This document shows positions 10,104 through 57,293 of a stretch of 64,000 bases of DNA, in pieces (position 1 is the first letter of the stretch; the number at the start of each line of letters is the position of its first letter). The notes under the pieces were generated by a model. It was not told the origin of the DNA. It was given only the letters and a program-made list of their open reading frames with translations, and did not search any database. The DNA is taken from contig CAZSSJ010000002.1 in NCBI GenBank assembly GCA_964609775.1, forward strand, positions 19,260 through 83,259. The letters run 5' to 3'. The DNA is from an uncultured Gammaproteobacteria bacterium (GTDB lineage Bacteria; Patescibacteriota; Microgenomatia; JAMCZE01). The position numbers and the translations under genes are program-made.

Positions 10104-11749
10104 CAGGGAAAATTGTCATGCTAATTCTTGCCTCAATCATTCTGCTAGGATTTCTTGTCCGCCTATACAGACTTGGCAATATTCCTAACGGCTTTTTCTT
10201 TGACGAAGCCACCATTTCCTACCAGGCATATAGTTTACTCCAGACGGGTAAAGATACCTGGGGAACTGACTTTCCTTTATTGTCATTTAGAGATTATGGA
10301 GAGTACATTTTGCCAATCGGCGTTTATGGTCAAATTCCTAGTCTATTAATTGGAGGGCTAAATGTCTTATCTGCTCGGTTTCCCCATGCTATTTTGGGAA
10401 TACTTAGTGTCCCATTAGTATATTTTTTAGCCAAAGAACTGTTTAAGAACACTAAAATTTCTCTTTTATCTTCATTTTTACTAACAATATCACCTCTTTC
10501 AATTGGTTGGACACGTTTTGTGTTCGAAGGTAATTTCGGGACAGTCCTTTTCTTGAGTGGGACACTTCTTTTCGCCAGGTCTTTAAAAAAGCCCCGACTT
10601 CTACCCTGGTCAATCCTTTCTTTTGGTCTGTCAGCCCTTTCCTATCACATATTTTTAATCCTCACTCCACTTTACTTTTGCCTGCTCTCTCTCCTGAATC
10701 GAAAATCCCCAAGTCTGATTGGACACATAAGACCCATAACTCTCATCATCGTTGTTTTCTTCCTCGCCTGGATCCTGGCTGCTATCGCCTCAGGCGCTGG
10801 TCGGCAGCGCTTTTCCCAAGCCTCAACTCTTCTTACACCTCAAAAAATTGACAACCTCAACCATCAAATTGGCTACTGTTCAAACCAAATGTCTCTCACC
10901 CTGTGCAAAGTATTTCTAAATAAGCCAGTCTTAGCAGCGACCAGCTACCTGGAAAACTACCTCGCCCACTTTTCGCCGGTCTTTTTAGGATTTGACGGGA
11001 CATTCCTTCGCCAAAATGTCTTGCCCAAGTCGGGAATACTTTTACCTGTGGAAATGGTCGGCTTTTTCGTGGGATTATTTTTTCTTGTCAGATCACCTAC
11101 TTCTTTAGCGAGCCGGATTTTATTACCGATAATCCTGATCTATCCCGTGGCTAATAGCTTCACTGGTCTGGGAGAAATCAGCCGGATTGCCTTTGCCAGC
11201 CCCTTTCTCTCGCTTGTCGCCGCCTATGGTTTGGTGCGAATCACCCAAACTTTCCGGGTGTTTAAGCCCCCGCTTTTTCTGGCTATTCTTTACAGCGTTG
11301 TCAGTTTCCTCATCACTTATTTTCTAATCTTCCCCAAAACTAACGCCTACTACACCAATTTTGGCTACGACAAAGTATTTTCTTGGGTGCGGGCCAATCA
11401 GTCTAAATATGACCGGATTTTTATCTCCCGCAACTATGCCGGTTCCGTTCCCTACATTTCTGCCCAATTTTTCCTGCCCATTGATCCGCAGATGTTTCAA
11501 AGGGGTCAAGTGGAGAGAAAAAAATCGCCTGAGGGTTATTATCAGATTGAATCCGTTGACCAGAAATTTCGATTTTTTCAAAATTTACACTCTGAAGCTC
11601 TTAAGCCAAATGATTTTGTTGTCGCCACCCCTGAGGACATTCAATCTTATGCGCTAACGCCGAAATTTACTATAATTGATCCCACGGGGAGAAAACTGCT
11701 CCTTGGCGTTGAAGCAAATGAAATTTTGGCAAAAACTGCTGTCCCTTAG
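10100..11749 (+). CDS. PMT_2/GT39-like (ArnT-like) GT-C glycosyltransferase
   Basis: ATGA overlap. N-terminal helix, then LYRLGNIPNGFFFDEATISYQAYSLLQTGKDTWG (loop-1 Asp-Glu motif). Polytopic core with a soluble C-terminal domain. Confidence 0.6.
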   Translation: MTGKIVMLILASIILLGFLVRLYRLGNIPNGFFFDEATISYQAYSLLQTGKDTWGTDFPLLSFRDYGEYILPIGVYGQIPSLLIGGLNVLSARFPHAILGILSVPLVYFLAKELFKNTKISLLSSFLLTISPLSIGWTRFVFEGNFGTVLFLSGTLLFARSLKKPRLLPWSILSFGLSALSYHIFLILTPLYFCLLSLLNRKSPSLIGHIRPITLIIVVFFLAWILAAIASGAGRQRFSQASTLLTPQKIDNLNHQIGYCSNQMSLTLCKVFLNKPVLAATSYLENYLAHFSPVFLGFDGTFLRQNVLPKSGILLPVEMVGFFVGLFFLVRSPTSLASRILLPIILIYPVANSFTGLGEISRIAFASPFLSLVAAYGLVRITQTFRVFKPPLFLAILYSVVSFLITYFLIFPKTNAYYTNFGYDKVFSWVRANQSKYDRIFISRNYAGSVPYISAQFFLPIDPQMFQRGQVERKKSPEGYYQIESVDQKFRFFQNLHSEALKPNDFVVATPEDIQSYALTPKFTIIDPTGRKLLLGVEANEILAKTAVP

Positions 11750-13454
11750 CCCTCTTGTTGTTCTCTTTATCGCCTCATTTTGGTCCTGGAAGCCGCTTCT
11801 GGCCTCCGGCTTTTTTACAATTCATGACAACCAGCAGATCGCCCGGCTGTTTGAATTAAATAAAGCTCTTCTTGCTGGTCAGTTTCCCGTTCGCTGGGTG
11901 CCGGATCTGGGTTTTAGCTTTGGCTACCCGCTCTTTAATTTCTATCCGCCCCTGATTTATTATCTCGGCGAACTCTTTCATCTGTTGCTCGGGACAGGAT
12001 TCATTGACTCAATTAAGATAGTTTGGTTCGTCGCCCTGGTGGGATCGGGGATTGCCATGTACTTCTTGGCGAAAGAGTACTTTGGCAGAGCAGGAGGACT
12101 CGTTGCCGCGATGTTTTATGTTTACGCTCCCTACCACGCCGTCGACGCCTACGTCCGCGGGTCTTTGGCCGAACTTTTTTCTTTTGTTTGGCTCCCCCTC
12201 ATCCTGCTGGCATTGTATAAAATTGTGACTTTGCCAATAAGCTACGATCGTTGGATTTTGGCAAGCGGTATTCTCCTTGGCCTGCTGATGATCACCCACA
12301 ACCTCATTTTTCTCCCTTTTGTGGGAATATCAGCCCTTTGGTATTTTGCTCTAGTATTAATTTATCGCCGTAACGAACCGGTCCGTTATACTTTATACTT
12401 TATACTTTATACAGCCCTTTGTTTCGCTCTATCAGCCTTTTTCTGGCTGCCGGCGCTGGCTGAAAAACAATTCACCCTCGTTGACCAACTCCTGATTAAG
12501 AATCTGGCTTCCTACCAAATCCATTTTGTCTGCCCGCAGCAGTTATGGAACAGTCCCTGGGGTTTTGGCGGTTCGACTGCAGGTTGTCTTGATGGCCTGT
12601 CATTCAAACTCGGCAAGCTGCACATCTTGGCAGCCATAGCCTCTTTCGGGGCTGTCGCCTACCTCTGGCTTAAAGCTCACAAAAAGCTAGCGTTAGTAAT
12701 TCTTATATCTTATTTCTTATTTTTTATATCCCTGTTCATGACTACTGACTATTCAAAAATTTTGTGGGACAATTTTCCCCCTCTTTGGTACCTTCAGTTC
12801 CCCTGGCGTTTTCTGGAATTTGCCACCCTTTTTGCCGCGCTAATTGCGGGGAGTATCTTGGCGTTGGTCAAAAATATCCCCCTTAAAATATTGGTTACCA
12901 TAACGCTAATTTCGGCAATTCTCTACATCGAAGCTAAAAACTTCGTTCCCCAAACCCACCTCTTCACTGACACAGACGACCAAGAAACTTCTGATGAGCA
13001 AATTAAGTGGGTCATCAGTTCAACTTCGTTTGAGTATCTCCCAAAAGAAGTTGCCACTAGAGTCACAGACCTCGGGACCGTTTGGGTCGATATTGATCGA
13101 TCAAAAATTCCCCCCCGAAAGTATCAAGTTCTCTCCGGAAACTTGCAAAGCACCGAGGAAATATTTCTTCCCCATCGTTTCAAACTCACTGGCCAATTTA
13201 CAAACGAGACGACAATTCAAATTAATGTGGCAAACTTTCCCGGGTGGGAAGTGTGGCTCGATGGTTCCGAAGCACGCATCAGGGATAACAATGCCTATAA
13301 ATTGATCACTATCAATGTCCCCCCAGGAAACCATACACTAACTGGGCAATTTACCAATACCTGGCCGAGGTCCCTAGGTAACACCATTTCCATCATTGCA
13401 CTCATCGCGTTAGCCCTTTACTTTGGAAAATATGGAATTAGAAGAAGTTCTTAA
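11718..13454 (+). CDS. PTPS-related-type polytopic membrane protein (GT-C candidate), paralog 2
   Basis: Start chosen at ATG 11718 (MKFWQKLLSLS). Motifs: HDNQQIARLFELNKALLAGQFPVRWVPDLGFSFGYPLFNFYPPLIYYLGE and C-terminal ANFPGWEVWLDGSE. Confidence 0.5.
   Translation: MKFWQKLLSLSPLVVLFIASFWSWKPLLASGFFTIHDNQQIARLFELNKALLAGQFPVRWVPDLGFSFGYPLFNFYPPLIYYLGELFHLLLGTGFIDSIKIVWFVALVGSGIAMYFLAKEYFGRAGGLVAAMFYVYAPYHAVDAYVRGSLAELFSFVWLPLILLALYKIVTLPISYDRWILASGILLGLLMITHNLIFLPFVGISALWYFALVLIYRRNEPVRYTLYFILYTALCFALSAFFWLPALAEKQFTLVDQLLIKNLASYQIHFVCPQQLWNSPWGFGGSTAGCLDGLSFKLGKLHILAAIASFGAVAYLWLKAHKKLALVILISYFLFFISLFMTTDYSKILWDNFPPLWYLQFPWRFLEFATLFAALIAGSILALVKNIPLKILVTITLISAILYIEAKNFVPQTHLFTDTDDQETSDEQIKWVISSTSFEYLPKEVATRVTDLGTVWVDIDRSKIPPRKYQVLSGNLQSTEEIFLPHRFKLTGQFTNETTIQINVANFPGWEVWLDGSEARIRDNNAYKLITINVPPGNHTLTGQFTNTWPRSLGNTISIIALIALALYFGKYGIRRSS
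12386..12412 (+). repeat. Heptanucleotide tandem repeat (TTATACT) x3 plus a 6-nt partial copy, inside a CDS
   Basis: Read directly: ttatact ttatact ttatact ttatac. It encodes YTLYFILYT. The unit length is not a multiple of 3. Confidence 0.9.
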
Positions 13455-14877
13455 TCGGACCGTAAAAAGCGTCATCGCGCTGACGAGCCGCAGCGTTGTC
13501 TTGCTGCTGATTCAGGCCGTGGCTTATTCTCTTCTCATCGCTTTTCTGGGAGCCCAGGAGATCGGCATTTTTATTGTCGTCTCGGCAATTTTGCGCGTCT
13601 TCACTTTCTTTACCGATTTGGGATTGGGCGCCGCCCTCATCCAGAAAAAAGAAAATTTAGACCAGGATGACCTGCGCTCTGCCTTTACTATTCAAACCGC
13701 ACTGGTCCTCATAATTATCGCCGTTGCCTTTGCGCTCACCCCGCTTGTCAGATCCTATGCCAATTTGGACCCGGCCGGAGTTTTTCTTTACCAGGTTCTC
13801 GCCTTCACTTTGCTCATTTCTTCCTTAAAAATGATCCCCTCGATTCTTCTGGAGAGGCAGCTGCGCTTTGAAAAACAAATCATTCCCCAAATCGTCGAGG
13901 CATTGGTATTCAACAGCTTGGTGGTCATTCTGGCGGCCAAACATTTTGGTGTCGCCTCCTATTCATGGGCCATTCTAGTTTCCTCTCTCGCCGGATTGCC
14001 CGTCTACTACCTAATTTCGCCGTGGAGAATTTCCCTGGGATTGTCGAAAGATGTGGCCAAACACCTCATTCGCTATGGCCTCCCTTTCCAAGGCAAGAGT
14101 GTCCTGGCGATAATAAAAGATGATCTTCTGGTCTTCTTTCTTTCCGGAATTGTTGGCACCGCCGGAATTGGCTACTGGGGGACGGCGCAAAAATTTGCCT
14201 ATTATCCCTTCCGTCTGCTCGTCGACACTCTCACTAAAGTCACTTTTCCCGCTTATTCGCGAATTCAACTGGAAAAAGAAGCCTTAAGAATTGGTATAGA
14301 AAAATCGCTACTTGCCGTCAGCCTCCTGCTCTTTCCGGTGCTCACCTTAATCGCCGTGCTGGCCCACAATCTTGTTTATTTAATCCCCAAATATCAAAAG
14401 TGGGAGCCGTCACTGCCTTCTCTCTATTTCCTCTGTGCGGGGGCGGCCGTCTCTGCCTTGTCAAACATTTTGGTGAACGCCCTTGACGCTACCGGACACG
14501 TCAAAACAACTCTGGGGTTGATGGTAATGTGGATAGTATTAACCTGGGTTGGAACTTTGGTCCTCGTAGCCAAGTTTGGTTTTACCGGAATAGCTATGGC
14601 CTCGTTCGTGGTCGCTCTCACCATTATTCTTACCATCTACTTGGTTAAACGGGTTGTCAATTTTCGCTTTTTGGGAAGTATCTTCAAGCCATTTTTGGGT
14701 TCCCTACTTATGGGGCTTTCGGTGTTTGCCCTCATTCAAGTTCTGCCAATCTCCTTCCCGGCTCTTCTTCTTGAAGGTATTGCTGGTGCTATAATTTATT
14801 TGGGTGCGATGTATCTGCTCGCCCGCAAGGAACTATTAGCGGATCTGAGAATCGTCATCAAAACTTTCAGAAAATGA
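13432..14877 (+). CDS. wzx: MOP-superfamily oligosaccharide/lipid-linked sugar flippase (Wzx-like)
   Basis: About 480 aa with 12 or more hydrophobic segments. Motifs typical of polysaccharide biosynthesis proteins (GLGAALIQ, YGLPFQG, VTFPAYSRIQ). ATG 13432; an alternative TTG lies at 13423. Confidence 0.65.
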   Translation: MELEEVLNRTVKSVIALTSRSVVLLLIQAVAYSLLIAFLGAQEIGIFIVVSAILRVFTFFTDLGLGAALIQKKENLDQDDLRSAFTIQTALVLIIIAVAFALTPLVRSYANLDPAGVFLYQVLAFTLLISSLKMIPSILLERQLRFEKQIIPQIVEALVFNSLVVILAAKHFGVASYSWAILVSSLAGLPVYYLISPWRISLGLSKDVAKHLIRYGLPFQGKSVLAIIKDDLLVFFLSGIVGTAGIGYWGTAQKFAYYPFRLLVDTLTKVTFPAYSRIQLEKEALRIGIEKSLLAVSLLLFPVLTLIAVLAHNLVYLIPKYQKWEPSLPSLYFLCAGAAVSALSNILVNALDATGHVKTTLGLMVMWIVLTWVGTLVLVAKFGFTGIAMASFVVALTIILTIYLVKRVVNFRFLGSIFKPFLGSLLMGLSVFALIQVLPISFPALLLEGIAGAIIYLGAMYLLARKELLADLRIVIKTFRK

Positions 14878-15767
14878 CAACAATTTCCTTCGCAATTGCG
14901 ACTCGTAATGAGGCTGATGACATTAAAGATTGCCTCGAATCGATCAAATGGGCTGATGAAATCGTCATTTTTGACGAAAAATCAATCGACAAAACGGTTG
15001 AGGTCGCCAAAAAATATACTTCTAAAATTTTCCTCATTGACCACGATCCGATGTTTCACCGCACTAAGCAAAAGGCAATCGATAAATGTGCCAGTGATTG
15101 GATTTTTCAAATTGACGCTGACGAAAGAGTCAGCCCCGACCTAAAAGATGAAATTCTCCAGACAATTAGTGGCGTCTCGTCGCTTCCCGGTTACCAACTC
15201 CCCCGCAAAAGCAGGATTTTTGGCAAATGGATGGAACACACCGGTTGGTACCCCGACTATCAGGTCAAGCTTTTCCAAAAGGGCAAGGGTCACTATCCCT
15301 GTCAGTCAGTTCACGAAATGATAACTATCGACGGTCAAATGGGAACTTTAACAAACGATCTTCTGCACGAACACTATTCCACTCTTGACTGGTATTTGAA
15401 TCGCCGGTTCGAATACACCAAAAACGACGCCGAAAACATCATCGCCCGCGGGGAAAAAATTGTTTGGTCAGATGCGATTAAATTCCCCGCCGACGAGTTC
15501 TTTAAACGATTTTTCTTTTGGCAAGGCTACAAAGACGGTCTGCATGGCTTAGTCCTCTCACTTTTGATGGCCTTTGACCGCTTAATCGTTTTTGCCCGCC
15601 TCTGGGAGCACCAAAAATTTTGGCAACATGACAGTGCTGATTTTCGAGGGGAAGTCATACACAAGACAAAAAAGGTGGCGCATGACTGGCACCATTGGCT
15701 GTCGCAAACTGCCACCAAACCCCACGAGAAAATCTTGCATAAGCTGAAAGCAAAATTTAATTTCTAA
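14874..15767 (+). CDS. GT2 glycosyltransferase (WaaE/KdtX-like subfamily)
   Basis: ATGA overlap. Motifs: ISFAIATRNEADDIKDCLESIKWADEIVIFDEKSIDKT and QIDADERVS (DxD). Paralogous to the genes at 18375 and 39213. Confidence 0.75.
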   Translation: MTTISFAIATRNEADDIKDCLESIKWADEIVIFDEKSIDKTVEVAKKYTSKIFLIDHDPMFHRTKQKAIDKCASDWIFQIDADERVSPDLKDEILQTISGVSSLPGYQLPRKSRIFGKWMEHTGWYPDYQVKLFQKGKGHYPCQSVHEMITIDGQMGTLTNDLLHEHYSTLDWYLNRRFEYTKNDAENIIARGEKIVWSDAIKFPADEFFKRFFFWQGYKDGLHGLVLSLLMAFDRLIVFARLWEHQKFWQHDSADFRGEVIHKTKKVAHDWHHWLSQTATKPHEKILHKLKAKFNF

Positions 15768-15770
15768 TCT

Positions 15771-16700
15771 ATGGAAAAAACTGAACTCTCAATTGCCACC
15801 ATTCTCCATAACGAGGAGGCGAACGTTGTCGAACTCCACCGGAGATTAAGCACGGTCCTAAAAACCCTCAATAAAACCCATGAAATTATTTTGGTAGATG
15901 ATGGCAGCACTGACAGGACACTTGATAAACTCAAGACGCTTCGCCAAAAGGACAGATCCATCAAAATCATCTCTCTCTCGCGAAACTTCGGTATCGAGGC
16001 CGCCGCCACTGCCGCCCTAGATCACACCAGCGGAGAAATGGTTGTTCTCATGGACGGCGACCTTCAGGACGCCCCGGAATTCATTCCCTCACTCCTGAAT
16101 AAAATTGGACAGGGCTACGACGTCGTCTACGCCCAGCACCCAAAGAGAAAAGACACCCTCGTGAAGCAAGCACTTTTTGGTAGCTTTTATCGGCTGATGG
16201 ACAAACTGGCCGACTATAAATTTCCCGTTGACGTGGGTCATTTTTCCGTGATGAGACGGCCGGTTGTCGACGTGTTGACGCAAATGACGGAAAGAAATCG
16301 GTTTATTGCCGGACTTCGGGCTTGGGTGGGCTTCAAACAAACAGGAATCCTGTATGAAAAACAGGCCAGGTTTGCCGGCAAACCACCACAAACATTTAAA
16401 AAGTTGCTCAAAATGGGCTTTGATGCTTTGTTTTCTTTCTCGTACATCCCACTTCGAGTTGCAACATTAATGGGTCTATTGGTCGCTATTGGAACAATTA
16501 TTGTGATCATTAACGTTTTGTATCAAAAATTCGTCGTCAACACTGCTATTATCGGATGGGCTGGACCCATGCTCTCAATATTGATCATCGGAGGTGTGCA
16601 ACTTTTCATTCTCGGCATAATCGGGGAATATTTAGCCAGAATCTATGATGAAGTCAAAAGGCGTCCCTACTATATCGTCTCTGAGAAAATTGGTTTCTAA
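15771..16700 (+). CDS. GT2 polyprenyl-phosphate sugar synthase (GtrB/ArnC/DPM1-like)
   Basis: Motifs: ILVDDGSTDRT and LMDGDLQDAPEFIP. Two C-terminal TM helices (LRVATLMGLLVAIGTIIVIINVLY; LSILIIGGVQLFILGIIGEYL) are typical of GtrB/ArnC architecture. Confidence 0.75.
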   Translation: MEKTELSIATILHNEEANVVELHRRLSTVLKTLNKTHEIILVDDGSTDRTLDKLKTLRQKDRSIKIISLSRNFGIEAAATAALDHTSGEMVVLMDGDLQDAPEFIPSLLNKIGQGYDVVYAQHPKRKDTLVKQALFGSFYRLMDKLADYKFPVDVGHFSVMRRPVVDVLTQMTERNRFIAGLRAWVGFKQTGILYEKQARFAGKPPQTFKKLLKMGFDALFSFSYIPLRVATLMGLLVAIGTIIVIINVLYQKFVVNTAIIGWAGPMLSILIIGGVQLFILGIIGEYLARIYDEVKRRPYYIVSEKIGF

Positions 16701-18378
16701 CGGGAGAGAGTTTGTCCCGCCGCTTGCCCCGGCAATATTCTTCACCCTGGTAGTCATCTACCTTCAGGGGGCAACAATTTTCCCCAGTGGTTTGTTTGAC
16801 AAAAGTGGCAACCTCATTTTCTATAATGATGTCCTCTTCCATGACAGCAATGTCCATCTTTCTTTAACGGGTGAACTCCTTCACCGTTTCCCCCCCACCA
16901 ATTTTGCTGCTTCCGGCGTACCTCTCAAAAACTATCATTATCTCTTTGACGTCTTTCTCGCCGTCATGCATAAATTAACGGCAATATCGGTTCTCGATCT
17001 TTATTTTCGCCTTGTCCCCGTAATTTTATCTTCTCTTTTATGTTTAGTCATTTATCAGTCTCTGATGGTCTTAACGAAAAAGCGTTGGGCCTGCGCTTTA
17101 GGGATCTTCTTTACGATTCTGGCAACCAGTTGGGGACCGCAGACGCCCTTCGTTAAAGACATCCTTGGCGCTTCGCCAGTGACCCCGGCCAGCAATCTTT
17201 TTATGACCGACCAGCTGCTAAGTATGCTTGTCAATCCCCAGGGTCAATTGTCCTTGATCGTCTTCCTCACTCTTTTTCTCTTGCTCCATCACTACGAACA
17301 CACAAAAAGAACTATCACGCTAGTTCTTTTTGCTTTGCTCCTGGGACTGTCGTTTGGGATCAAAGCCTATGGGGGAATCGTCTTTGCCCCAGCGGCAATC
17401 TTTAGTGCCGTCTACTTTATCATCCGCACCAGAGATCCAAAACCACTCCTCGCTGTCCTTTTTGGCTTTGCGATTATGGCTTCGTGGGTTGCCCTTACGA
17501 TTGATAGAGGCGTCGCCGGTTTGCAATTCGCCCCCTTCTGGCTGCTGGATCACATGATGACTGACCTGGATAAGCTCAACGAACCCCGTTTCTTGCTCCT
17601 CAAAGAACACTACACCCAGATGAGTAATTGGGCTCGTTTGTTTGTTCTAAATCTCTTTTCTCTAGCAATCTATGTCTTCGGCAGTTTGGGTTTGCGTCTC
17701 TTCGGTCTACTGGGCGTCATTTGGCTCATCAAGCAAAAGATGTCATCTCCCTCGCTCTTCTTTTTAATCACTGCCGCGGCGATCTCTTTTACCGTCCCTG
17801 TCCTTTTCAACCAATCGAAAAAAGCCTACGACACCGTCCAGTTTACCCCATACTTCACCCTCTTCATGGGCTTGATGTTCTCCGTAACCGTGTTTATCTT
17901 CCTAAAACATCTCCGGAAGCGCCGCATATTCAAAGCGATTTTTGCCGTGTCTGTTGTCACCTTAGTCATCCTTTTAAATCTCAGCGAAATTTCCATCCGA
18001 TTTCGACCAAGAGAAGAGAAAATAGTCATCCCTAACACCACACTCGAGGCGACTGAGTATGTCAGAACCGAAACCCCACCAAACGCCATTTTTCTGCTCG
18101 CTCCGACGGAGTTTAATCGCAGCTACCTCATCTTTTCCTCCTTGACACAAAGGCGGACGGCTTTTTCCGGACTGGATTTTGCCTACCAAGTGGGGCAGGA
18201 CACCCAACGCCTACGCACCCAGTGGGAGAGCTATTTTGCCGACGGGAAAGTGCCAGCTGACGTTGACTATCTATTTATTCCCGCCCCGGAAGAGGACGAT
18301 TTTGTTAGAATTAAAGAAAACTCCCGCTTCGTCACCGTCTTTGACAACAGCGCGGTAAAAATTCTTAAAAAAAGTTGA
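16645..18378 (+). CDS. Polytopic membrane protein, unassigned (possible distant PTPS-related/GT-C)
   Basis: 577-aa ORF overlapping upstream by 56 nt. Loop 1, HDSNVHLSLTGELLHRFPPTNFAASGVPLKNYHYL, echoes the HD...H...FP(V/P)R pattern of the genes at 8613, 11718 and 37536. The core is highly hydrophobic. Confidence 0.35.
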   Translation: MMKSKGVPTISSLRKLVSNGREFVPPLAPAIFFTLVVIYLQGATIFPSGLFDKSGNLIFYNDVLFHDSNVHLSLTGELLHRFPPTNFAASGVPLKNYHYLFDVFLAVMHKLTAISVLDLYFRLVPVILSSLLCLVIYQSLMVLTKKRWACALGIFFTILATSWGPQTPFVKDILGASPVTPASNLFMTDQLLSMLVNPQGQLSLIVFLTLFLLLHHYEHTKRTITLVLFALLLGLSFGIKAYGGIVFAPAAIFSAVYFIIRTRDPKPLLAVLFGFAIMASWVALTIDRGVAGLQFAPFWLLDHMMTDLDKLNEPRFLLLKEHYTQMSNWARLFVLNLFSLAIYVFGSLGLRLFGLLGVIWLIKQKMSSPSLFFLITAAAISFTVPVLFNQSKKAYDTVQFTPYFTLFMGLMFSVTVFIFLKHLRKRRIFKAIFAVSVVTLVILLNLSEISIRFRPREEKIVIPNTTLEATEYVRTETPPNAIFLLAPTEFNRSYLIFSSLTQRRTAFSGLDFAYQVGQDTQRLRTQWESYFADGKVPADVDYLFIPAPEEDDFVRIKENSRFVTVFDNSAVKILKKS

Positions 18379-19187
18379 CTATGGTTTCAGCTATTGTTTT
18401 TATATTTTGGCCCGAAGAGGAAGATCATTTTGAAGTCTGCTTAAAAACTTTGTCATGGGTTGATGAAATTATCGTCATTGATAATGGGGCTTCAAAGAAA
18501 ACATCTAACCTTGCCAAAAAATATCATGGTCGAATTATTAAAACTGATTCAAAAAGTTTTGCCCAAAGACATAATCTTGGTGCAAATGAAGCAAAAGGGG
18601 ACTGGCTATTATTTATCGACGCCGATGAACGGATATCCAAGGATCTTCAGCAAGAGATTGCCCGAGAAATTGTTCACCCGACAGCTGACGCCTACGAGTT
18701 AAACAGAATCAATTTTTATCTTGGTAAGAAGGTTCGGTTTGGAGACCGATACCCAGACTACGTTGCTAGATTGTTTTATAAAACAAAACTTAAAGAATGG
18801 ACCGGTGATATCCATGAATCTTCGGTTGTGAGTGGCACAACGGGTCGACTGTCAGCTCCTCTATATCACCTAACTCACCGTGACATATTTTTGATGATAG
18901 ATAAAACAAAAAACTATGCTGAGATTGAAGCCAAACTCAGACTGGAATCTCACCATCCACCGGTTGTTGGTTGGCGTCTGGTGCGAGTTTTTCTGACCGA
19001 ACTCTATAATCGCATCATTAAACTTCAAGGTTTCAGGCAGGGGACAGAGGGTTGGATTGACGGCCTCTTTCAAGCCTTTTCCCTGTTTATCGTCTATGCC
19101 CGACTTTGGGAAAAGCAAAGAAAGCCTGATTTAGAAGAAACCTACCGGCAACTTGACCAAAAAATTTTGACGGGAGAAGAACTATAA
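18375..19187 (+). CDS. GT2 glycosyltransferase (WaaE/KdtX-like subfamily)
   Basis: TTGA overlap (alternative ATG at 18381). Motifs: LSWVDEIIVIDNGASKKT and FIDADERIS. C-terminal GFRQGTEGWIDGLFQAF parallels the paralogs. Confidence 0.75.
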   Translation: MTMVSAIVFIFWPEEEDHFEVCLKTLSWVDEIIVIDNGASKKTSNLAKKYHGRIIKTDSKSFAQRHNLGANEAKGDWLLFIDADERISKDLQQEIAREIVHPTADAYELNRINFYLGKKVRFGDRYPDYVARLFYKTKLKEWTGDIHESSVVSGTTGRLSAPLYHLTHRDIFLMIDKTKNYAEIEAKLRLESHHPPVVGWRLVRVFLTELYNRIIKLQGFRQGTEGWIDGLFQAFSLFIVYARLWEKQRKPDLEETYRQLDQKILTGEEL

Positions 19188-19273
19188 TCATCATCTTCGA
19201 ATTTGCAACAGTTTTGATGATTAATACACATCGAAATGCGGTGAACGCATAATATTTACCTTATGATGGGTAT

Positions 19274-20350
19274 ATGAAAGTTGGCATCTATAGCCCCTAT
19301 TTGGACACTTTGGGTGGGGGAGAGCGCTACATTTTGACCGCTGCAGAATTTTTCCTCCACAGAAAAGATAGTGTCGACATTTTCTGGGATAAGGACAGCG
19401 ACTTGCAAGATATGGCCGCCCGTTTCGGACTTGATCTGAAAGGTGCCAAGTTTGTCTCCAATCTTTTTTCCGGAAACTTCAGTTTTTGGCAAAGACTTAG
19501 AAAAAGTTACCGATACGACTTAATTCTGGTTCTCTCGGACGGTAGCATCCCTTTGACGCTGGCAAAGAAAAACTTCATCCATCTTCAAGTCCCATTTCAA
19601 AAATCCAACCGGCCAAAAATAGTCAACCGCCTTAAGCTACTGACATATAAAGCCGTCCTCTGCAATTCATATTTCACTAAAAAGATTATCGATCAGACCT
19701 ATGGCATAACCAGTAGTGTTCTCTATCCGCCTGTTGATGTTAACCGTTTCCAGCCGGGGAAAAAAGAAAAAGTGATTCTTTCGGTGGGTCGCTTCTTTGC
19801 AGCCAGGCACCTGCACAATTTTGCCCCAAAAAAGCACCAAGAAATGATTAGCGCCTTTGAGGAGCTAATTGATTCCGGTCTTAAAGACTGGAAACTTCGC
19901 TTGCTAGGAGCCAATTCTCCCGATCAGCAAAGTTCCCTTGAGCAGTTAAAAAAAATTGCCCAAAACTACCCGATTGAAATTTCGTCCAACGTTGACTATG
20001 AAGATTTAAAGACCAGCTTCGCCCAGGCCTCTATATATTGGCACGCCGCCGGTTTTGGTGAGGATCTGGATAAACACCCAGAAAGAGCCGAGCACTTCGG
20101 CATTACCACTGTTGAAGCGATGGCCTCGGGCGCTGTCCCGGTTGTCTTTGCCGGCGGCGGCCAAAAGGAGATCATTCAGGACTCGGTCAATGGTTTGTTT
20201 TGGCAAACCCCAGGCGAGCTTCAGACCAAAACTATTCAACTCATCAAAAATCAATCTCTAACACGGAAACTAGCTGAAAAAGCCCTCATCAGGTCACGCG
20301 ATTTTAGTAAGCAAAAATTTTTCCGTTCTTTGGAAGACCTCTTGAAATGA
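19274..20350 (+). CDS. GT4 (group 1, GT-B) glycosyltransferase
   Basis: N-terminal MKVGIYSPYLDTLGGGERY. C-terminal EHFGITTVEAMASGAVPVVFAGGGQKEII (E-x7-E type motif). It is the first gene after an 86-bp gap. Confidence 0.8.
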   Translation: MKVGIYSPYLDTLGGGERYILTAAEFFLHRKDSVDIFWDKDSDLQDMAARFGLDLKGAKFVSNLFSGNFSFWQRLRKSYRYDLILVLSDGSIPLTLAKKNFIHLQVPFQKSNRPKIVNRLKLLTYKAVLCNSYFTKKIIDQTYGITSSVLYPPVDVNRFQPGKKEKVILSVGRFFAARHLHNFAPKKHQEMISAFEELIDSGLKDWKLRLLGANSPDQQSSLEQLKKIAQNYPIEISSNVDYEDLKTSFAQASIYWHAAGFGEDLDKHPERAEHFGITTVEAMASGAVPVVFAGGGQKEIIQDSVNGLFWQTPGELQTKTIQLIKNQSLTRKLAEKALIRSRDFSKQKFFRSLEDLLK

Positions 20351-22557
20351 GAAAAAAAATATTTTTCCTTCCGTTGATATTTCTTATCGTTTTTGCGGCT
20401 CTTTTTTATTCTCCCCTAATTTTAGAAAAAAAACTTCCCATTCCGGCGGACACCATCGTCGGTCTGTATCACCCCTGGCGGGACTATTTTTCTAAAAATT
20501 ATCCAAACGGAATTCCCTTCAAAAACTTTCAAATCACCGACTCCGTCCGGCAACAATATCCTTGGCGAAGCCTGTCAATTGATCTGATCAAAAGGGGAGA
20601 GGTGCCAAGGTGGAACCCCTATTCGTTTTCGGGCACTCCCCTGCTGGGGAATTTTCAATCAGCTGTATTCTATCCCCTCAACATCCTCTACCTCTTGGTG
20701 AGCGATTTTGCTTCTGTTTGGGCCATCCAGGTGGTCTTGCAAACAGTTTTGGGTGGAATTTTTATGTGGGCCTATCTCCACAATCTGAAGCTAAAACCTC
20801 AAGCGCAAGTTCTGGGAACCTTGGCCTGGGTCGGCAGCGGATTTTTTATCGCCTGGCTGGAGTGGAACACGGTCGTTCATGTGGCCATCTATTTACCGCT
20901 GGTTCTACTCACTATCGATGAAATCATTCTGGAAAAACATTCCCCCCCAAAAAGCATTTTTTGGCCTTTTGTCTTTGTGGGCGCTTTAGTCAGTAGTTTC
21001 TTTGCTGGATATCTGCAGCCGTTCTTTTATGTCTTTATAACCAGCTTGGTTTATCTGTCAGCCAGAGTGTGGCAGACGAAGAAGTTTCAAAAGCTCCTGC
21101 TGTTTTCAATTCTGTACGTCCTTTTCTTTATCATTAGTCTTCCTCAACTGATCCCGACCTTAAGTTTCATAAATTTGTCCGCCCGCGACGTTGACCAGGC
21201 AAATTGGACTCGGCCCGACTGGTTCCTCCCTTGGCAAAACTTAATTCAGCTCGTTGCTCCCGATTTTTTTGGCAATCCGGCGACTCTCAATTATTTCGGC
21301 GTTTGGAACTATCAGGAGTTTGTCAGTTTCATTGGCACCGCACCACTTGTTTTCGCCCTGGCAGCCCTTTTTATGCGCCGCGATAAAAAGACGCTTTTTT
21401 GGGGAGCTCTTTTGACCTTGACCTTAGTCTTCGCCTTACCCACGCCAATTGCCAGGTTGCCGTACGTTTTAAAATTGCCCTTTCTCTCAACTGCCCAACC
21501 ATCAAGAATAATAATGCTGGTAGACTTTGCCCTGGCGATCCTGGCCGCACTTGGCCTGGATCACTATTTGCGAAAATCCCCGCGCGCTCCTTTGGGCAGT
21601 ACCTTAATTGTTGTTTCGGCCCTGGCTCTTCTACTTATCTTTACTTATAAGTCAGGCCTGCTGGTCAGTCAGAGAAATCTCATTTTACCCCTGGTAATAA
21701 CCGTCGTCGTTTTCTTCCTCCTTTCCGTCGTCCATTTGGTCAAAAAAACTAAATCCGTCATCGTCCTGGCAATTCTCATCCTTACCTTATTTGACTTGCT
21801 TCGTTTTGCGACAAAGTTTGAACCGTTTTCGCCCAGAGAATATCTTTACCCTTCAACAAAAATACTTTCTTTTCTTGAGGGCAAAGCAAAAGAAGAAGTC
21901 TTTCGAGTGGCTGCCCTGGACGATCGCATTTTGCCCTCAAATTTTAATGTTGCTTATAAAATTCAGATGGCCGCTGGCTACGATCCACTTTATTCAAAAC
22001 GCTACGGACAATTTATCGCCTCACTTGAGCGGGGAAAGCCCGACATCTCCCCGCCTTGGGGATTTAACAGAATTATTACCCCCAAACTTGTCGGCAGTCA
22101 CCTTTACGGCCTTTTAAACACCAAGTATGTCCTCTCTTTTGTTGATTTTCCTCAGTTCAAACTTCTTGCTAAAGAAGGGGACACCTATCTATTTGAATAC
22201 CCGGACGCTCTTCCCCGGGCCTTTTTTGTTTCCCGGACGATAAATGCCATCAGCGGTAATGAAGCCATAAGCAAAATATATTCTTCGGACTTTGATTCCC
22301 GAAACAGTGCCGTGGTAGAAAACTTCCGCACCGCTGCCTTTACGACCGGACAGGCAAAGATAACTTCCTATACGGAAAATACTGTCGTGCTTCAAACGCA
22401 AAATACCTCTGAGGGCTTCCTAGTGCTGCTGGACGCCTATTATCCTGATTGGCATGCCACTGTTGATAGTGTTCCTACTCAGATCTATATTACAAACTAT
22501 ATTTTCAGGGGCATAAAAGTGCCACGCGGGAATCATCTCGTGAAATTTCAAATATGA
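20347..22557 (+). CDS. YfhO-like GT-C membrane glycosyltransferase (paralog 4)
   Basis: ATGA overlap. Motifs: VPRWNPYSFSGTPLLGNFQSAVFYPLN and C-terminal LLDAYYPDWHATVDSVPTQIYITNYIFRGIKVPRG. Confidence 0.6.
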   Translation: MRKKIFFLPLIFLIVFAALFYSPLILEKKLPIPADTIVGLYHPWRDYFSKNYPNGIPFKNFQITDSVRQQYPWRSLSIDLIKRGEVPRWNPYSFSGTPLLGNFQSAVFYPLNILYLLVSDFASVWAIQVVLQTVLGGIFMWAYLHNLKLKPQAQVLGTLAWVGSGFFIAWLEWNTVVHVAIYLPLVLLTIDEIILEKHSPPKSIFWPFVFVGALVSSFFAGYLQPFFYVFITSLVYLSARVWQTKKFQKLLLFSILYVLFFIISLPQLIPTLSFINLSARDVDQANWTRPDWFLPWQNLIQLVAPDFFGNPATLNYFGVWNYQEFVSFIGTAPLVFALAALFMRRDKKTLFWGALLTLTLVFALPTPIARLPYVLKLPFLSTAQPSRIIMLVDFALAILAALGLDHYLRKSPRAPLGSTLIVVSALALLLIFTYKSGLLVSQRNLILPLVITVVVFFLLSVVHLVKKTKSVIVLAILILTLFDLLRFATKFEPFSPREYLYPSTKILSFLEGKAKEEVFRVAALDDRILPSNFNVAYKIQMAAGYDPLYSKRYGQFIASLERGKPDISPPWGFNRIITPKLVGSHLYGLLNTKYVLSFVDFPQFKLLAKEGDTYLFEYPDALPRAFFVSRTINAISGNEAISKIYSSDFDSRNSAVVENFRTAAFTTGQAKITSYTENTVVLQTQNTSEGFLVLLDAYYPDWHATVDSVPTQIYITNYIFRGIKVPRGNHLVKFQI

Positions 22558-23237
22558 AACTTTCCATCATCGTCCCAGCATATAACGAAGAAAAAACCAT
22601 TACTAAAGTCATCGATAAGTTATTGCGACTAAAAATCCGTGGTTGGCACAAAGACGTAATTGTCGTTGACGATGCTTCAACCGATCAAACACTCCAGCTT
22701 TTAAAAAACTACCGGGGAAAAATTACCCTCATCCATCACTTAGCCAACCGCGGAAAAACGGCGGCCATAAGGACTGCTGTTCGTCAGACAAGCGGTGATT
22801 ACATCATCATTCAGGATGCCGATCTCGAGTATGATCCCAAGGATATTCCCCTTCTGATTCGCGCTCTCGGTGATAGTAAAGACGCAGTTGTCTTTGGCTC
22901 CCGATTTGCAACGTCAAAGTATGTCGACACTGTCTTTGGTCACAAATTCGGCAACAAGTTGCTGACTCTTCTGGCAAATTTGCTCTACAGGTCAGACATT
23001 TCAGACATGGAAACTTGTTACAAACTCATTCCGGGTCCATTTCTTCGAAGCATCACCCTACAATCTGACCGTTTTGGTTTTGAACCGGAAATTACGGCCA
23101 AGGTGCTTCGAAGTGGGAGAAAAATCAAGGAAGTGCCTATTTCCTATGTCAAAAGATCAGTCACCGAAGGAAAGAGTATCCGTTGGTGGCGCGACGGCTG
23201 GGCCACGGTAGCCATACTGATTCGCTATCGTTTATGA
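22554..23237 (+). CDS. GT2, DPM1-like (soluble polyprenyl-phosphate sugar synthase candidate)
   Basis: ATGA overlap. Motifs: LSIIVPAYNEEKTI, VVDDASTDQT and IIQDADLEYDPKDIP. 227 aa with no TM segment. Confidence 0.7.
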   Translation: MKLSIIVPAYNEEKTITKVIDKLLRLKIRGWHKDVIVVDDASTDQTLQLLKNYRGKITLIHHLANRGKTAAIRTAVRQTSGDYIIIQDADLEYDPKDIPLLIRALGDSKDAVVFGSRFATSKYVDTVFGHKFGNKLLTLLANLLYRSDISDMETCYKLIPGPFLRSITLQSDRFGFEPEITAKVLRSGRKIKEVPISYVKRSVTEGKSIRWWRDGWATVAILIRYRL

Positions 23238-24859
23238 AATTTCTAATCCTCTTTCTTATTGTAATCCTGGCCTTTTTACTTCGCTTCTATCAGCTCTCAA
23301 CAAATCCCCCGGGCCTCAATCTCGACGAAGTGGCCATCGGTTACAATGCCTACTCTATTCTCCGTACTGGCAGAGACGAGTATGGCAAATTTCTCCCGAT
23401 TGTTTTTCGCTCCCACGACGACTACAAACCACCCCTATACATTTATTTAACCGCGCCTTCAATCGCCGTCTTTGGGGTCAATGAGTTCGCCGTTCGGTTT
23501 CCCGCCGCGCTTTTTGGGACCCTGTCAGTGCTGGCAGTATTTTTTCTCAGCCGGCAACTTTTTTCTTCCTCTAAATTAGCCTTGCTGTCTTCTTATTTTT
23601 TGGCGATTTCCCCCTGGCACTTGCAATTCACCCGAGCGGCATTTGAAACTGGCGTGACGGTTTTTGCCACCGCCGTTGGGGTTTTCTTGTTCCTTCGCGG
23701 GCTAACGAAAAAGAGTTCCGCCTCCCTCATCCTCGCCAGCCTCGCCTTTGGATTGGAACTCTATCTCTACCAGGCTGCCAAGGTTTTTATTCCTCTTCTT
23801 GTCATCGCTCTTCTGGCTCTCAACCTTCAGAAAATTATCAACCAGAAGAAAAGAGTCCTTGTTTTCGTCTTCATTTTTGCAACTTTCTTCCTTCCCGTTG
23901 CCTTCCTTTCCACAACCCGCGCGGGCCAACTTCGCTTCCAAGGAACGAGTATTTTCAAAGAGTATCTCCCATATGCCCATGCTCAGTCCTGGAGAGAAGC
24001 CGATCAACTCTCCGGGAGTACTTTTGCCGCCTCTCTTTTCCATCCACGCTTTTTAACTTACCTTCCCTCAGTCATTTCCGGATACCTGTCCCACTATGAC
24101 CTCACCTTTCTCTTTGTCGGTGATCACGGCCCGCCGAATAATTATGTCCCTGGAGCGGTTGGTCTTCTGTATCCCTGGGAGATCCTCGCGGTCATTCCTG
24201 GCTTGTATTTTCTTGCCCGACGTTTTCGCCCCGCCTCGCTAGTCGTCTTTGCTTGGTTTCTTCTGGCTCCCTTGCCGGCTTCCGTGACCTCCGGCGTCCC
24301 TAGTGCCACCCGCACCGCACTCAGTCTTCCTATCTATCAGATCATCACCGCGCTTGCCATTGTTGTGTTGTTAAATATCATCAGGAACCATTCACGCTTC
24401 TGGGCAAACGCTTCTTCCTTGGCCTTTTTGCTTCTGACTGTCCCCATCGTCACCTATTACCTGCATATGATGTTTTTCCATGCCCCTCGGGACTATTCAG
24501 ACATTTGGTTTTATGGCTATAAAAACGTCGTTGCCGAGACGGCTCGCCTTGCTCCAAACTATCGTCGGGTGGTTGTTTCCACGGCGCTAAAACAACCCCA
24601 GAATTTTTTCGCTTTCTTTTTACGCTATGATCCCTTGACCTACCTGCGTGTTGACGGGGGAACCGTTTCTGGCGGTTTTAAGGAAAACCGAAATCACTTC
24701 GCTAAGTTCAACTTCACTTCCTCTGATTGGGAGACGCTTCTCAAAGAGAAGTCACTCTTATTTGTGGGTTTGGTAGATGACTTTCCTGATAGCATTACCC
24801 CCATTAAGACGTTTCACTATCTTAATGGCAAGCCGTCAGTTATGATAGTGGGAACGTAA
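23234..24859 (+). CDS. PMT_2/GT39-like GT-C glycosyltransferase (array member 1)
   Basis: ATGA overlap at 23234 (MKFLILFLIVILAFLLRFYQL). Motifs: LNLDEVAIGYNAYSILRTGRDEYG and SHDDYKPPLYIY. Confidence 0.65.
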   Translation: MKFLILFLIVILAFLLRFYQLSTNPPGLNLDEVAIGYNAYSILRTGRDEYGKFLPIVFRSHDDYKPPLYIYLTAPSIAVFGVNEFAVRFPAALFGTLSVLAVFFLSRQLFSSSKLALLSSYFLAISPWHLQFTRAAFETGVTVFATAVGVFLFLRGLTKKSSASLILASLAFGLELYLYQAAKVFIPLLVIALLALNLQKIINQKKRVLVFVFIFATFFLPVAFLSTTRAGQLRFQGTSIFKEYLPYAHAQSWREADQLSGSTFAASLFHPRFLTYLPSVISGYLSHYDLTFLFVGDHGPPNNYVPGAVGLLYPWEILAVIPGLYFLARRFRPASLVVFAWFLLAPLPASVTSGVPSATRTALSLPIYQIITALAIVVLLNIIRNHSRFWANASSLAFLLLTVPIVTYYLHMMFFHAPRDYSDIWFYGYKNVVAETARLAPNYRRVVVSTALKQPQNFFAFFLRYDPLTYLRVDGGTVSGGFKENRNHFAKFNFTSSDWETLLKEKSLLFVGLVDDFPDSITPIKTFHYLNGKPSVMIVGT

Positions 24860-26402: not shown

Positions 26403-26820
26403 CTTTCTCTGCACTAAGGACTGGATCCTCGGCGATGTTCCCCTTCAGCTCTGGGAAGCAACCACCGCCGATGGTCCCACCGCGAACGCTTTGCTGACTC
26501 GGTTTCTCCATAATAAGCCGATGTTTTATTTGGACAATTTTCTCCGCTGCTATCTGTCCTATCTTTCGGCAGACTTTTTGGTCAAAGCCTTCTCTCTCTT
26601 AGGATTAGGACTTTTCATTTTCGGAGTCTACCAAGCCATCCGACAGCGAAGAAAATGGCTGTTAAGCATTGTTCTAATGACCCCGTTGTTCCCCCTTTTT
26701 CAATTTCCCGCGGCTAACTTAGCCCAGGGAGTTCTTCTTTATGGTTCACAATTAGCCCTGATCTTGTTTGGTCTCCAACAACTCATTAAAATTCTAATAC
26801 AAAAATTCCGTGCGCCTTAA
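26374..26820 (+). CDS. Small membrane protein resembling the central segment of the flanking GT39-like paralogs (relic or mini-gene)
   Basis: 148-149 aa (GTG 26371 or ATG 26374). NFLRCYLSYLSADFL..LLGLGLFIFGVYQAIRQRRKWLLSIVLMTPLFP..PAANLAQ parallels NYLSHLDPAFLF..PFIILGLIYLIRHRPKYLALLLIWFVLSPVPA of the gene at 32907. It lacks the DE loop. Confidence 0.4.
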   Translation: MLPFASMNFNFLCTKDWILGDVPLQLWEATTADGPTANALLTRFLHNKPMFYLDNFLRCYLSYLSADFLVKAFSLLGLGLFIFGVYQAIRQRRKWLLSIVLMTPLFPLFQFPAANLAQGVLLYGSQLALILFGLQQLIKILIQKFRAP

Positions 26821-42103: not shown

Positions 42104-42784
42104 GTGCCAAAAATCCTAGTTGTCATCCCTGCTTTTAATGAACAAGCTACCTTGCTCTCCGTCCTATCCGACGTGTTAAAGAACATCCCGGCTGATGTAC
42201 TTGTCGTCAACGACGGGTCTTCTGATTCGACTAAAGATATAGCGCTTAAAAACAATGTCTTTGTGGTCTCCCACGTCGCCAACCGCGGTCTTGGCGCGGC
42301 CTTGGGAACCGGTTTTGAGTTTGCCAGGAAAAGAGATTATGACATTTTGGTCACTTTCGACGCGGATGGTCAACACACTTCGAAAGACGCCTTAAAACTC
42401 ATCCGGACAATCGACAAGGGGAGAGCAGATGTGGCTATCGGCAGCCGGCTTTTGACCAAAACTGCGATGCCTTTGGATCGAAAAGTGCTCAACTATCTGA
42501 GCGACCTGTTAACCTATATTTTCTATGGTGTCTGGACAACAGACTCCCAGTCCGGTCTGCGGGCTTTTAATAAGGAGGCAATTTCAGAAATTAAAATTAT
42601 GACTGACCGCATGGAGGTCAGCAGTGAATTTTTTAGAGAGATAAAACGCAATCATTTAACTTTTAAAGAAGTCGCCATTCAGGCAATCTACACTGATTAT
42701 AGTTTGTCAAAAGGCCAGGACAAAAAGGGTAATTGGAATGCTTTGTCGATTGGAGTTAAAATGCTCTTAAGGCTTTTTTCCTAA
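42104..42784 (+). CDS. GT2, DPM/DPG-synthase-like
   Basis: GTG start. Motifs: ILVVIPAFNEQATL, LVVNDGSSDST, NRGLGAALGTGF and TFDADGQHTSKD. Confidence 0.7.
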   Translation: MPKILVVIPAFNEQATLLSVLSDVLKNIPADVLVVNDGSSDSTKDIALKNNVFVVSHVANRGLGAALGTGFEFARKRDYDILVTFDADGQHTSKDALKLIRTIDKGRADVAIGSRLLTKTAMPLDRKVLNYLSDLLTYIFYGVWTTDSQSGLRAFNKEAISEIKIMTDRMEVSSEFFREIKRNHLTFKEVAIQAIYTDYSLSKGQDKKGNWNALSIGVKMLLRLFS

Positions 42785-43129
42785 GTGACACTAATTCAAT
42801 TGCTACTATCGATCTTTCTGCTCTTTGCTCTCAGCCGGGTGATATTGCGCTTCCGTGGCGGCCAACTCTCACCCTTAGAATTCGCCTTTTGGTCGATCCT
42901 CTTCGTGGCAGCAATTTTTGGAATTTTTCTCCCCGAGCAAACGTCGCAACTGGCTAAAATATTAGGAATTGGTCGAGGAGCAGACCTGGTCGTTTATGTC
43001 TCAATTGTAATCATTTTCTACCTTGTTTTTAGACTCTATATTATGATCGAGAATCTCCGTCACGAAATAACCGAGATTGTCAGAAAAATAGCTCTGGAAA
43101 ATGTCATCAAATCGAAAACAAAAAAGTAA
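42785..43129 (+). CDS. DUF2304-type small membrane protein (GT2 partner)
   Basis: GTG start directly after the GT2 stop. 114 aa. The pattern LSRVILRFRGGQL..FAFWSILF..LAKILGIGRGADLVVYVSIVIIFYLVFRLY..ENLRHEITEIVRKIAL is typical of DUF2304. Confidence 0.65.
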   Translation: MTLIQLLLSIFLLFALSRVILRFRGGQLSPLEFAFWSILFVAAIFGIFLPEQTSQLAKILGIGRGADLVVYVSIVIIFYLVFRLYIMIENLRHEITEIVRKIALENVIKSKTKK

Positions 43130-57284: not shown

Positions 57285-57293
57285 ACTTTTGCT

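Follow-up and report, generated by a model that had tools for sequence, protein, structure and literature searches.

In every domain of life, the flipping of polyprenyl- and dolichyl-phosphate sugars across the membrane is one of the most poorly defined steps in the assembly of glycans. The stretch of DNA analysed here, a 64-kb segment of a metagenomic contig referred to below as the window, encodes ~20 membrane glycosyltransferases (GTs) of the GT-C type, which need flipped donors, and one MOP-type protein (13432..14877, +), the only flippase-type protein of the array besides a Wzm/Wzt exporter and a split EamA transporter at its far end. The question raised by this locus is what the MOP protein carries and which enzymes it serves. 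We tentatively favour the reading in which it flips polyprenyl-phosphate-linked monosaccharides for the GT-C array. The initial annotation had described the MOP gene and four genes downstream of it (13423-19187) as a block resembling a three-component glycosylation module, and all five open reading frames (ORFs) were confirmed in place on the + strand.

The window is almost wholly one co-directional gene array on the + strand, seen over ~80 kb of the 112-kb contig (the window plus ~8 kb of each flank). The array is an enormous one-directional surface-glycan assembly locus with the five-gene block at its conserved centre, and its host is an uncultured, ultrasmall, Gottesmanbacteria-like bacterium (Microgenomates, Candidate Phyla Radiation (CPR)/Patescibacteria). 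The exact MOP protein was present on at least 24 metagenome contigs, the longest of 112 kb, and identical or homologous proteins were found in conserved order on dozens of contigs from metagenomes and metagenome-assembled genomes (MAGs). This recurrence shows that the block genes are not chance ORFs.

Classification of the MOP flippase

The MOP gene encodes 481 aa from the ATG at 13432 chosen by gene callers, the ORF itself opening with a TTG at 13423, and a crude hydropathy scan detected hydrophobic segments along the entire protein. It matched Pfam Polysacc_synt_3 over residues 41-329 (6.3e-47, 160.7 bits; cut-off 23) and Polysacc_synt (2.1e-21, 77 bits; cut-off 28.2), scoring above the gathering score for membership of the PST/Wzx profiles. 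The classification by hidden Markov models therefore agreed with the initial annotation of a MOP/Wzx-like flippase, and was Wzx/PST-type rather than MurJ. The best NCBIfam matches fell far below their equivalog cut-offs; these were to the WzxC-like MOP model PRK10459 (2e-35, 122.7 bits, cut-off 273), the O-glycosylation Wzx (1.7e-22, 80.1 bits, cut-off 720) and TuaB (7.6e-22, 78 bits, cut-off 580). For this reason the protein is classed, by its profile matches, as a Wzx/PST-type protein belonging to no named subfamily. Sequence searches of the PDB with the protein and with its family profile returned nothing. At least 518 homologues were found, of which the best 120 were all from Patescibacteria, and the source records name them 'oligosaccharide flippase family protein'.

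A conserved core around the flippase gene

A scan of GTDB species representatives yielded 80 MOP loci, all from Patescibacteria, which were annotated by phmmer against the window proteins; 48 of these had enough flank to be scored. A homologue of the GT2 that follows MOP in the window (GT2-297; 14874..15767, +; 297 aa, Pfam Glycos_transf_2 1.4e-13, one predicted hydrophobic helix near residue 223) lay directly downstream of MOP in 46/48 loci. Every locus had, within five genes of MOP, a homologue of the soluble GT2-270 (18375..19187, +; 270 aa, called from 18381 as 268 aa; Glycos_transf_2 5.4e-12) and, near MOP, one of the GT4 (19274..20350, +; Pfam Glycos_transf_1 1.9e-19). The YfhO-family GT-C (YfhO-736; 20347..22557, +; Pfam YfhO 3.6e-22) had a homologue near MOP in 41 of the 48. 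Most relatives also carried an additional ~303-aa rhamnosyltransferase-like GT2 near MOP.

The upstream partner of MOP was also conserved. In the window it is a PTPS_related-family GT-C (11676..13454, +; ORF of 592 aa, 578 aa as called) that overlaps the MOP start by 23 nt, has a weak PF10131 match in the contig annotation, and is a paralogue of the PTPS_related genes at 8613 and 37536 (E ~1e-49 to 1e-54). A PTPS-type GT-C lay directly upstream of MOP, as here, in five loci, and either directly upstream or one gene removed in 45/48. The gene in between was usually a small GT2 of 225-262 aa, found immediately upstream of MOP in 42/48 loci and itself preceded by the PTPS-type GT-C in 40 of those 42. 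One example of this small GT2 was scanned (L045:9289-10005), and its best match was the ArnC catalytic domain (4.4e-24), with further matches to PgfS, AglJ, PpgS and a dolichyl-phosphate (Dol-P) hexose transferase. Counting either a small ArnC-like GT2 or a GtrB-type GT2, 44/48 loci had such an enzyme within three genes of MOP.

The clade-wide core thus consists of a PTPS-type GT-C, the Wzx-type MOP protein, GT2-297, GT2-270, the GT4 and the YfhO GT-C. In the window, gene overlaps of 23, 4, 56 and 4 nt, the first of them between the PTPS-type GT-C and MOP, indicate co-translation.

The co-occurrence of the block genes gave a different picture from that of a dedicated module. A strong GtrB-type GT2 was present in only 2/48 loci and the 577-aa GT-C that follows it in the window in 3/48, so the block is not kept as a unit, and MOP retains its other partners with or without these two genes; one locus, L014 (GCA_964641255.1), is a bare core lacking both. 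An obligate cis pairing of the two was also rejected, as L015 and L021 have the 577-aa GT-C without a GtrB-type GT2, and L020 has the GtrB-type GT2 without the 577-aa GT-C. These two genes make up an accessory cassette, which a few lineages, among them that of the window, carry as an insertion in the MOP-centred core.

Two side observations were made on these loci. Just upstream of the core GT4, and on the opposite strand, L012 (16233-16514, -), L045 (16283-16516, -; 2.2e-21) and ~35 other Levybacteria-type loci carry a DUF5652 gene of ~75-90 aa with two transmembrane (TM) segments, which is not present in the matching 86-nt gap of the window (19188-19273). Many MAG records with this Patescibacteria-type locus (L015, L017, L019, L021 and others) are titled 'uncultured Gammaproteobacteria bacterium', and that of L088 'Bathyarchaeia archaeon'; these titles are probably mislabelled.

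The GtrB-type GT2 and the 577-aa GT-C

The GT2 at 15771..16700 (+; 309 aa) comprises a GT-A domain and, as had been annotated, two C-terminal TM helices. It matched Synechocystis GtrB sll0501 (PDB 5EKP) over its full length (8.3e-78, query residues 4-307), and the alignment runs through both hydrophobic helices (~226-251 and ~262-287). Weaker PDB matches were to ArnC (1.7e-43), the NCBIfam matches were to PgfS (5.6e-74) and ArnC (3e-44), and the motif DGDLQDAPE supplies DGD as the DxD motif. These matches identify the product as a bona fide polyprenyl-phosphate glycosyltransferase of the GtrB/ArnC type, predicted by homology to use a nucleotide sugar as the donor in glycosylating polyprenyl phosphate.

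The polytopic 577-aa protein (16645..18378, +) gave no Pfam or NCBIfam match and had 39 homologues only, all from Patescibacteria/Gottesmanbacteria sources. Its structure model has the GT-C fold, with a conserved N-terminal TM module and long outer loops, and the structural matches were exclusively to GT-Cs of the ArnT/OST/ALG type (OST, oligosaccharyltransferase), AglB being the closest. The earlier suggestion of a membrane transferase is borne out, and the protein represents a new, Pfam-less GT-C family restricted to Patescibacteria. Asp67, in the first extracytoplasmic loop after TM1, was invariant in 31 family members and is a candidate catalytic residue. An OST identity (STT3/AglB/PglB) was rejected on two grounds: no significant STT3 profile match was obtained even at E <= 1, and no WWD or WWDYG motif was found in the family consensus or its invariant columns.

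The 56-nt overlap between these two genes, which had been noted initially, holds if the 577-aa protein starts at ATG 16645, the start also picked by metagenome gene callers. An alternative start at TTG 16690 would cut the overlap to 11 nt, so that the genes overlap either way. This may be the true start: residues 1-23 are disordered in the model; an N-terminal extension is found in the family only where a GtrB-type gene lies upstream, other members starting a few residues before TM1; and the 'MMK...P' N-termini of several homologues mirror, in another frame, the conserved C-terminus of the GT2 (IYDEVKxRP).

Search for GtrA, Wzy and initiating enzymes

Pfam scans covered all 51 ORFs of at least 150 aa in the window. 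No GtrA (PF04138) was found among them, nor among the three small membrane ORFs that a six-frame hydropathy screen of the window detected (a DUF2304 protein, a 149-aa ORF and an EamA fragment), in agreement with the absence of GtrA reported initially. The ~8 kb upstream and ~8 kb downstream on the same contig were also free of GtrA, and within the 80 related loci the small membrane ORFs included no GtrA-like candidate, the recurrent small gene there being DUF5652.

The window contained no match to the profiles for Wzy, Wzz, WaaL-type proteins or phosphoglycosyltransferases (PGTs), among these profiles PF04932, PF14296, PF02706, PF00953 and PF02397, and the ~16 kb of flanks had no PGT or Wzy either. 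Two Pfam-less polytopic proteins were considered as Wzy candidates and rejected. All matches of the 577-aa protein (16645-18378) were to GT-Cs of the ArnT/OST/ALG type, as were those of the product of 45235-46365, which were weak (E 0.025-0.3); neither protein gave a match to Wzy, WaaL or SEDS. A 485-aa polytopic protein (36082-37539) was not assigned to either the GT-C or the Wzy class. Thus, leaving this one protein unclassified, neither a MurJ identity, nor a Wzy that would mark the flippase as a conventional Wzx, nor an adjacent GtrA was encountered in the window and its ~16 kb of flanks.

Role of the MOP protein

Under the tentatively favoured reading, the GtrB-type enzyme would, judging from its family, act at the inner face of the membrane and charge polyprenyl phosphate with the sugar of a nucleotide sugar. 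The lipid-phosphate-sugar would then be flipped, most likely by the MOP protein, and the 577-aa GT-C would move the sugar onto a surface glycan outside the membrane, as its fold and the invariant loop Asp suggest. The same flippase may serve other sets, namely the GT2 at 22554 with the PMT_2 GT-C at 23183, the GT2 at 42104 with its DUF2304 partner, and the GT2 at 35326, with Wzm/Wzt as the presumed exit for the backbone polymer that the GT4 block builds. Such a scheme would be the logic of the GacI/J/K/L side-chain proposal scaled up to ~20 GT-Cs. The role fits the contiguous triplet of GT-C, ArnC-like GT2 and MOP found in 40/48 loci. It is supported by a locus that has no GtrA, has a separate ABC exporter for a cytoplasmic polymer and has ~20 GT-Cs in need of flipped donors, and also by published precedents, both for a Wzx-type flippase in such a role and for one flippase serving several enzyme pairs. 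The initial suggestion that MOP serves many GT-Cs is therefore plausible and now has comparative support, with a conventional Wzx role standing beside it.

Several points weigh against this assignment. The substrate proposed for MOP is a prediction from gene context and family. The cytoplasmic GT2-297, GT2-270 and GT4 are linked to MOP (46-48/48) more tightly than is any lipid-phosphate-sugar synthase, and in four of the 48 loci (L019, L021, L073 and L082) the surroundings of MOP lack both the small ArnC-like GT2 and the GtrB-type one. A conventional role in oligosaccharide flipping fits equally well in this respect, because the lipid-linked product of the cytoplasmic GTs would also need an exporter. 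The flippase roles of GacK and AglR are published proposals and not demonstrated activities. Finally, genes of the gtrA/gtcA type are commonly unlinked to their GT2/GT-C pairs, so a locus without GtrA does not prove a genome without GtrA.

The alternative that survives best, possible although less probable than monosaccharide flipping, is that MOP is a conventional Wzx. The cytoplasmic GTs would build an oligosaccharide on polyprenyl diphosphate, started by a PGT encoded elsewhere, and MOP would flip the unit for use by the flanking GT-Cs or by an unlinked polymerase or ligase; the donors of the GT-Cs would then cross by way of the EamA protein, some other scramblase or a GtrA encoded at a distance. 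Three to five cytoplasmic GTs always flank MOP (46-48/48), its best family matches (WzxC-like, O-glycosylation Wzx and TuaB) are oligosaccharide flippases, as are its homologues by the names in their source records, and it is kept where no ArnC/GtrB-like GT2 lies nearby (as in L019/L014; four of the 48 scored loci). Initiating transferases, moreover, often lie outside such clusters, as wecA does for O-antigen loci. On the other side, neither the 64-kb window nor its flanks gave a Pfam match for Wzy, Wzz, a WaaL-type protein or a PGT, the Pfam-less proteins at 16645 and 45235 fold as ArnT/OST/ALG-type GT-Cs and not as Wzy, and Wzm/Wzt is already there for a cytoplasmically built polymer. Flipping of a conventional unit would also leave the triplet of GT-C, ArnC-like GT2 and MOP (40/48) unexplained.

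An archaeal-style route appears unlikely. Here an ArnC/AglJ-like or GtrB-type GT2 would start the glycan on polyprenyl monophosphate, and the adjacent GT2s and GT4 would lengthen it on the cytoplasmic side. MOP would flip the product, and its en bloc transfer to a protein or polymer would fall to an OST-like GT-C (the 577-aa protein, the PTPS-type one or the YfhO-type one). The array lacks a PGT and has an ArnC/AglJ-like GT2 beside MOP in most loci, both as such a route would have it, and Haloferax offers a precedent in the succession of AglJ, AglG/I/E, flipping and AglB, with Agl15 as the proposed flippase for a Dol-P-tetrasaccharide; the resemblance of the 577-aa protein to AglB in its fold hints in the same direction. 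That family, however, lacks the WWDYG motif and any Pfam STT3 match and is absent from most loci with the MOP core, and we know of no bacterial precedent for a monophosphate-linked route. If the archaeal-style reading were true, no bacteria before these CPR members would have been known to employ oligosaccharide donors linked to a monophosphate, and the MOP family would be a tractable model for the still elusive flippases of polyprenyl- and dolichyl-phosphate glycans.

It is very improbable that MOP is a MurJ-like lipid II flippase lying by chance in a glycan array: some homologues do have weak precomputed PF03023 matches beside their Polysacc_synt matches, and Wzx-type flippases are said, in the title of one study, to be able to substitute for MurJ in other bacteria, but the protein gave no match to MurJ (PF03023) at E <= 0.01, against 6e-47 for Polysacc_synt_3, and its gene overlapped genes of glycan assembly at both ends in all loci examined, and a MurJ identity was rejected on the profile evidence.

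Other genes of the array

The GT-C inventory was compiled from the Pfam scans, two structure models and paralogy within the window. It comprises 20 genes, spanning 358-47593 and making up 52% of the window: four YfhO, three PTPS_related, eight PMT_2, one GT87 and one PIG-V-like gene, the two Pfam-less genes assigned by fold (16645 and 45235), and one with a weak PMT_2 match. Within-window comparison showed seven of the eight PMT_2-matching GT-Cs to be detectably paralogous to one another. A CPR genome of roughly 1 Mb invests very heavily by carrying twenty GT-Cs. The remaining content includes nine GT2 and ten GT4 or GT4-like genes, four clear methyltransferase-domain proteins, one acyltransferase and one PIG-L deacetylase. 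More GT-Cs, one GT2 and one methyltransferase occupy the ~8-kb upstream flank, and GT87 and MptA_B-family matches were found in or beside the window. The ~8-kb downstream flank carries sugar-nucleotide genes including those for nonulosonic acid; the NeuB and CMP-sugar synthetase encoded there point to nonulosonic acid in the glycan.

At least four GT2s of the window resemble ArnC, DPMS or PpgS and could supply donors to its ~20 GT-Cs. A second GT2/GT-C pair (22554..24859, +) consists of a soluble AglJ/DPMS-like GT2 (22554-23237; NCBIfam AglJ 1.9e-32, PpgS 7e-15, Dol-P hexose transferase 1.8e-14) and a PMT_2 GT-C (23183-24859; Pfam PMT_2 1.1e-15). Their overlap of 55 nt is nearly equal to the 56 nt between the GtrB-type GT2 and the 577-aa GT-C, and the two could reflect either a recurrent coupling of GT2 to GT-C or recurrent over-long start calls. 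The GT2 at 35326-36075 also resembles AglJ (1.8e-19); no GT2 of the window reaches the AglJ equivalog cut-off.

Four features had been missed in the initial annotation. The first, a DUF2304 membrane protein (42785-43126, +; 114 aa, Pfam 3.9e-21), lies directly after a soluble GT2 that resembles polyprenyl-phosphate-N-acetylhexosamine synthases (42104-42784; NCBIfam PpgS 4.9e-43), forming a pair of the GacI/GacJ (PpgS/Rv3632) type (42104..43126, +). The gene set of a GacI/J/K/L-type system, GT2 with DUF2304, Wzx-type flippase and GT-Cs, is thereby present in one locus.

The second is the Wzm/Wzt ABC exporter (56472..58574, +; ABC2_membrane 3.1e-19, ABC_tran 1.4e-21), which, going by its profile matches, would be a second export route of the locus, for a cytoplasmically built glycan. 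Wzt also matches the carbohydrate-binding domain Wzt_C, but weakly, its 24.1 bits (4e-05) falling short of the curated cut-off of 30.4 bits. Several methyltransferases flank the exporter, both in the window (50588-60258, +) and in L010 (12549-16100), which, with the weak Wzt_C match, suggests that the chain is terminated by a methyl cap like that of ABC-dependent O-antigens.

The third is an EamA/DMT-type transporter (62136-63015, +) that a frame change near 62430-62444 appears to split into ORFs of 102 aa and 193 aa. The two ORFs are also called separately on the independent 112-kb metagenome contig, and they could be either remnants of a pseudogene or a true transporter made in two pieces. 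Half-size DMT proteins of the ArnE/ArnF type flip undecaprenyl phosphate-linked aminoarabinose (Und-P-Ara4N), which makes the split EamA protein another flippase candidate.

The fourth is a conserved 149-aa membrane ORF (26371-26820, +) between two PMT_2 genes. Relatives of 138-150 aa, located in an apparent gap after a PMT_2 gene, were found in L008 (20617-21048), L009 (19717-20133), L013 and L020; they share two or three C-terminal TM helices and the motifs 'QLWEA.TA' and 'FLRCYLSY'. The ORF in the window has no Pfam match and is not GtrA; it was considered as a possible stand-in for GtrA.

Two further genes stand apart from the rest. The only sizeable minus-strand gene within 0-63 kb (34475-35122, -) encodes 215 aa with one TM-like segment and a PaaX_M/Cas2-like central domain (3.4e-17), and may be a candidate regulator splitting the array into two transcription units. 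An enolase-superfamily protein (48342-49349, +; MR_MLE_C 2.1e-27) is encoded among GT2 and GT4 genes and may be a sugar-acid or epimerase-type modifying enzyme.

Comparison with known systems

The component families and the logic of the block are known, and the pairing of a Wzx-type protein with a GT2 and a GT-C has been proposed before. What is new is the Pfam-less GT-C family found only in Patescibacteria, the fixed triplet of GT-C, ArnC-like GT2 and MOP across Microgenomates, and the scale of the array; literature searches brought up no specific report on flippases or GT-C arrays of CPR/Patescibacteria. The value of the locus lies in a well-defined flippase candidate and a new GT-C family and not in a new principle. 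As dozens of Microgenomates species have the fixed triplet and lack a GtrA in its vicinity, the MOP family offers a clean candidate set for Wzx-type flipping of monosaccharide lipids, and the scale of the array bears on how epibiotic CPR bacteria build their surfaces.

The pairing of a MOP protein with GT-Cs had been regarded initially as unusual, which the precedents contradict: GacK is paired with GacI, GacJ and GacL, AglR with AglD and AglS, and three GT2/GT-C pairs of Lactococcus share a single flippase, CflA. The GacI/GacJ/GacK/GacL proteins, which add the side chain of the group A carbohydrate of S. pyogenes, make up a system of several components for transmembrane glycosylation that has a Wzx-type flippase (PMC8035078). 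Compared by gene category, that system and the present locus share a polyprenyl-phosphate-sugar GT2, a small three-TM helper, a Wzx-type flippase and a GT-C, together with cytoplasmic GTs and a backbone ABC exporter in the same locus. They differ in that a single MOP protein is found here among ~20 GT-Cs and at least four GT2s resembling lipid-phosphate-sugar synthases. The GT2/DUF2304 pair lies 27 kb from MOP, and the GT2 of the block is instead of the GtrB type with TM helices of its own; the host is a CPR bacterium.

In Haloferax volcanii, the Wzx-like AglR is the proposed flippase for Dol-P-mannose, acting with AglD and AglS, and Agl15 has been proposed for a Dol-P-linked oligosaccharide (PMC3871713). 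DPMS/AglJ-like GT2s, a Wzx-like protein and GT-Cs are common to the Agl pathway and the window, and AglB is the closest structural relative of the 577-aa GT-C; the host here, however, is bacterial, the OST motifs are missing and no GT2 reaches the AglJ equivalog cut-off.

The GtrA/GtrB/Gtr GT-C systems of Shigella and Salmonella phages and the CsbB/GtcA/YfhO systems of Firmicutes share with the block a GtrB-type GT2, with a full-length GtrB match, and adjacent, overlapping GT2 and GT-C genes, and YfhO and PMT_2 GT-Cs are found in the array. In place of GtrA/GtcA, of which none was found in this locus or the 80 related loci, there is a MOP protein with a putative 12-plus TM segments.

The arabinogalactan and lipoarabinomannan pathways of mycobacteria (PpgS/Rv3632/Rv3779, Ppm1, Emb/Aft/Mpt/PimE) resemble the array in that a glycan of the wall is assembled outside the membrane by many different GT-Cs using polyprenyl-phosphate-sugar donors; a PpgS-like GT2 with its DUF2304 partner is common to both, as are GT87 and MptA_B matches in or near the window. 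In mycobacteria, these genes are scattered and a GtrA-like protein, Rv3789, is the proposed flippase, whereas here they are joined in one co-directional array whose conserved core contains a Wzx-type flippase.

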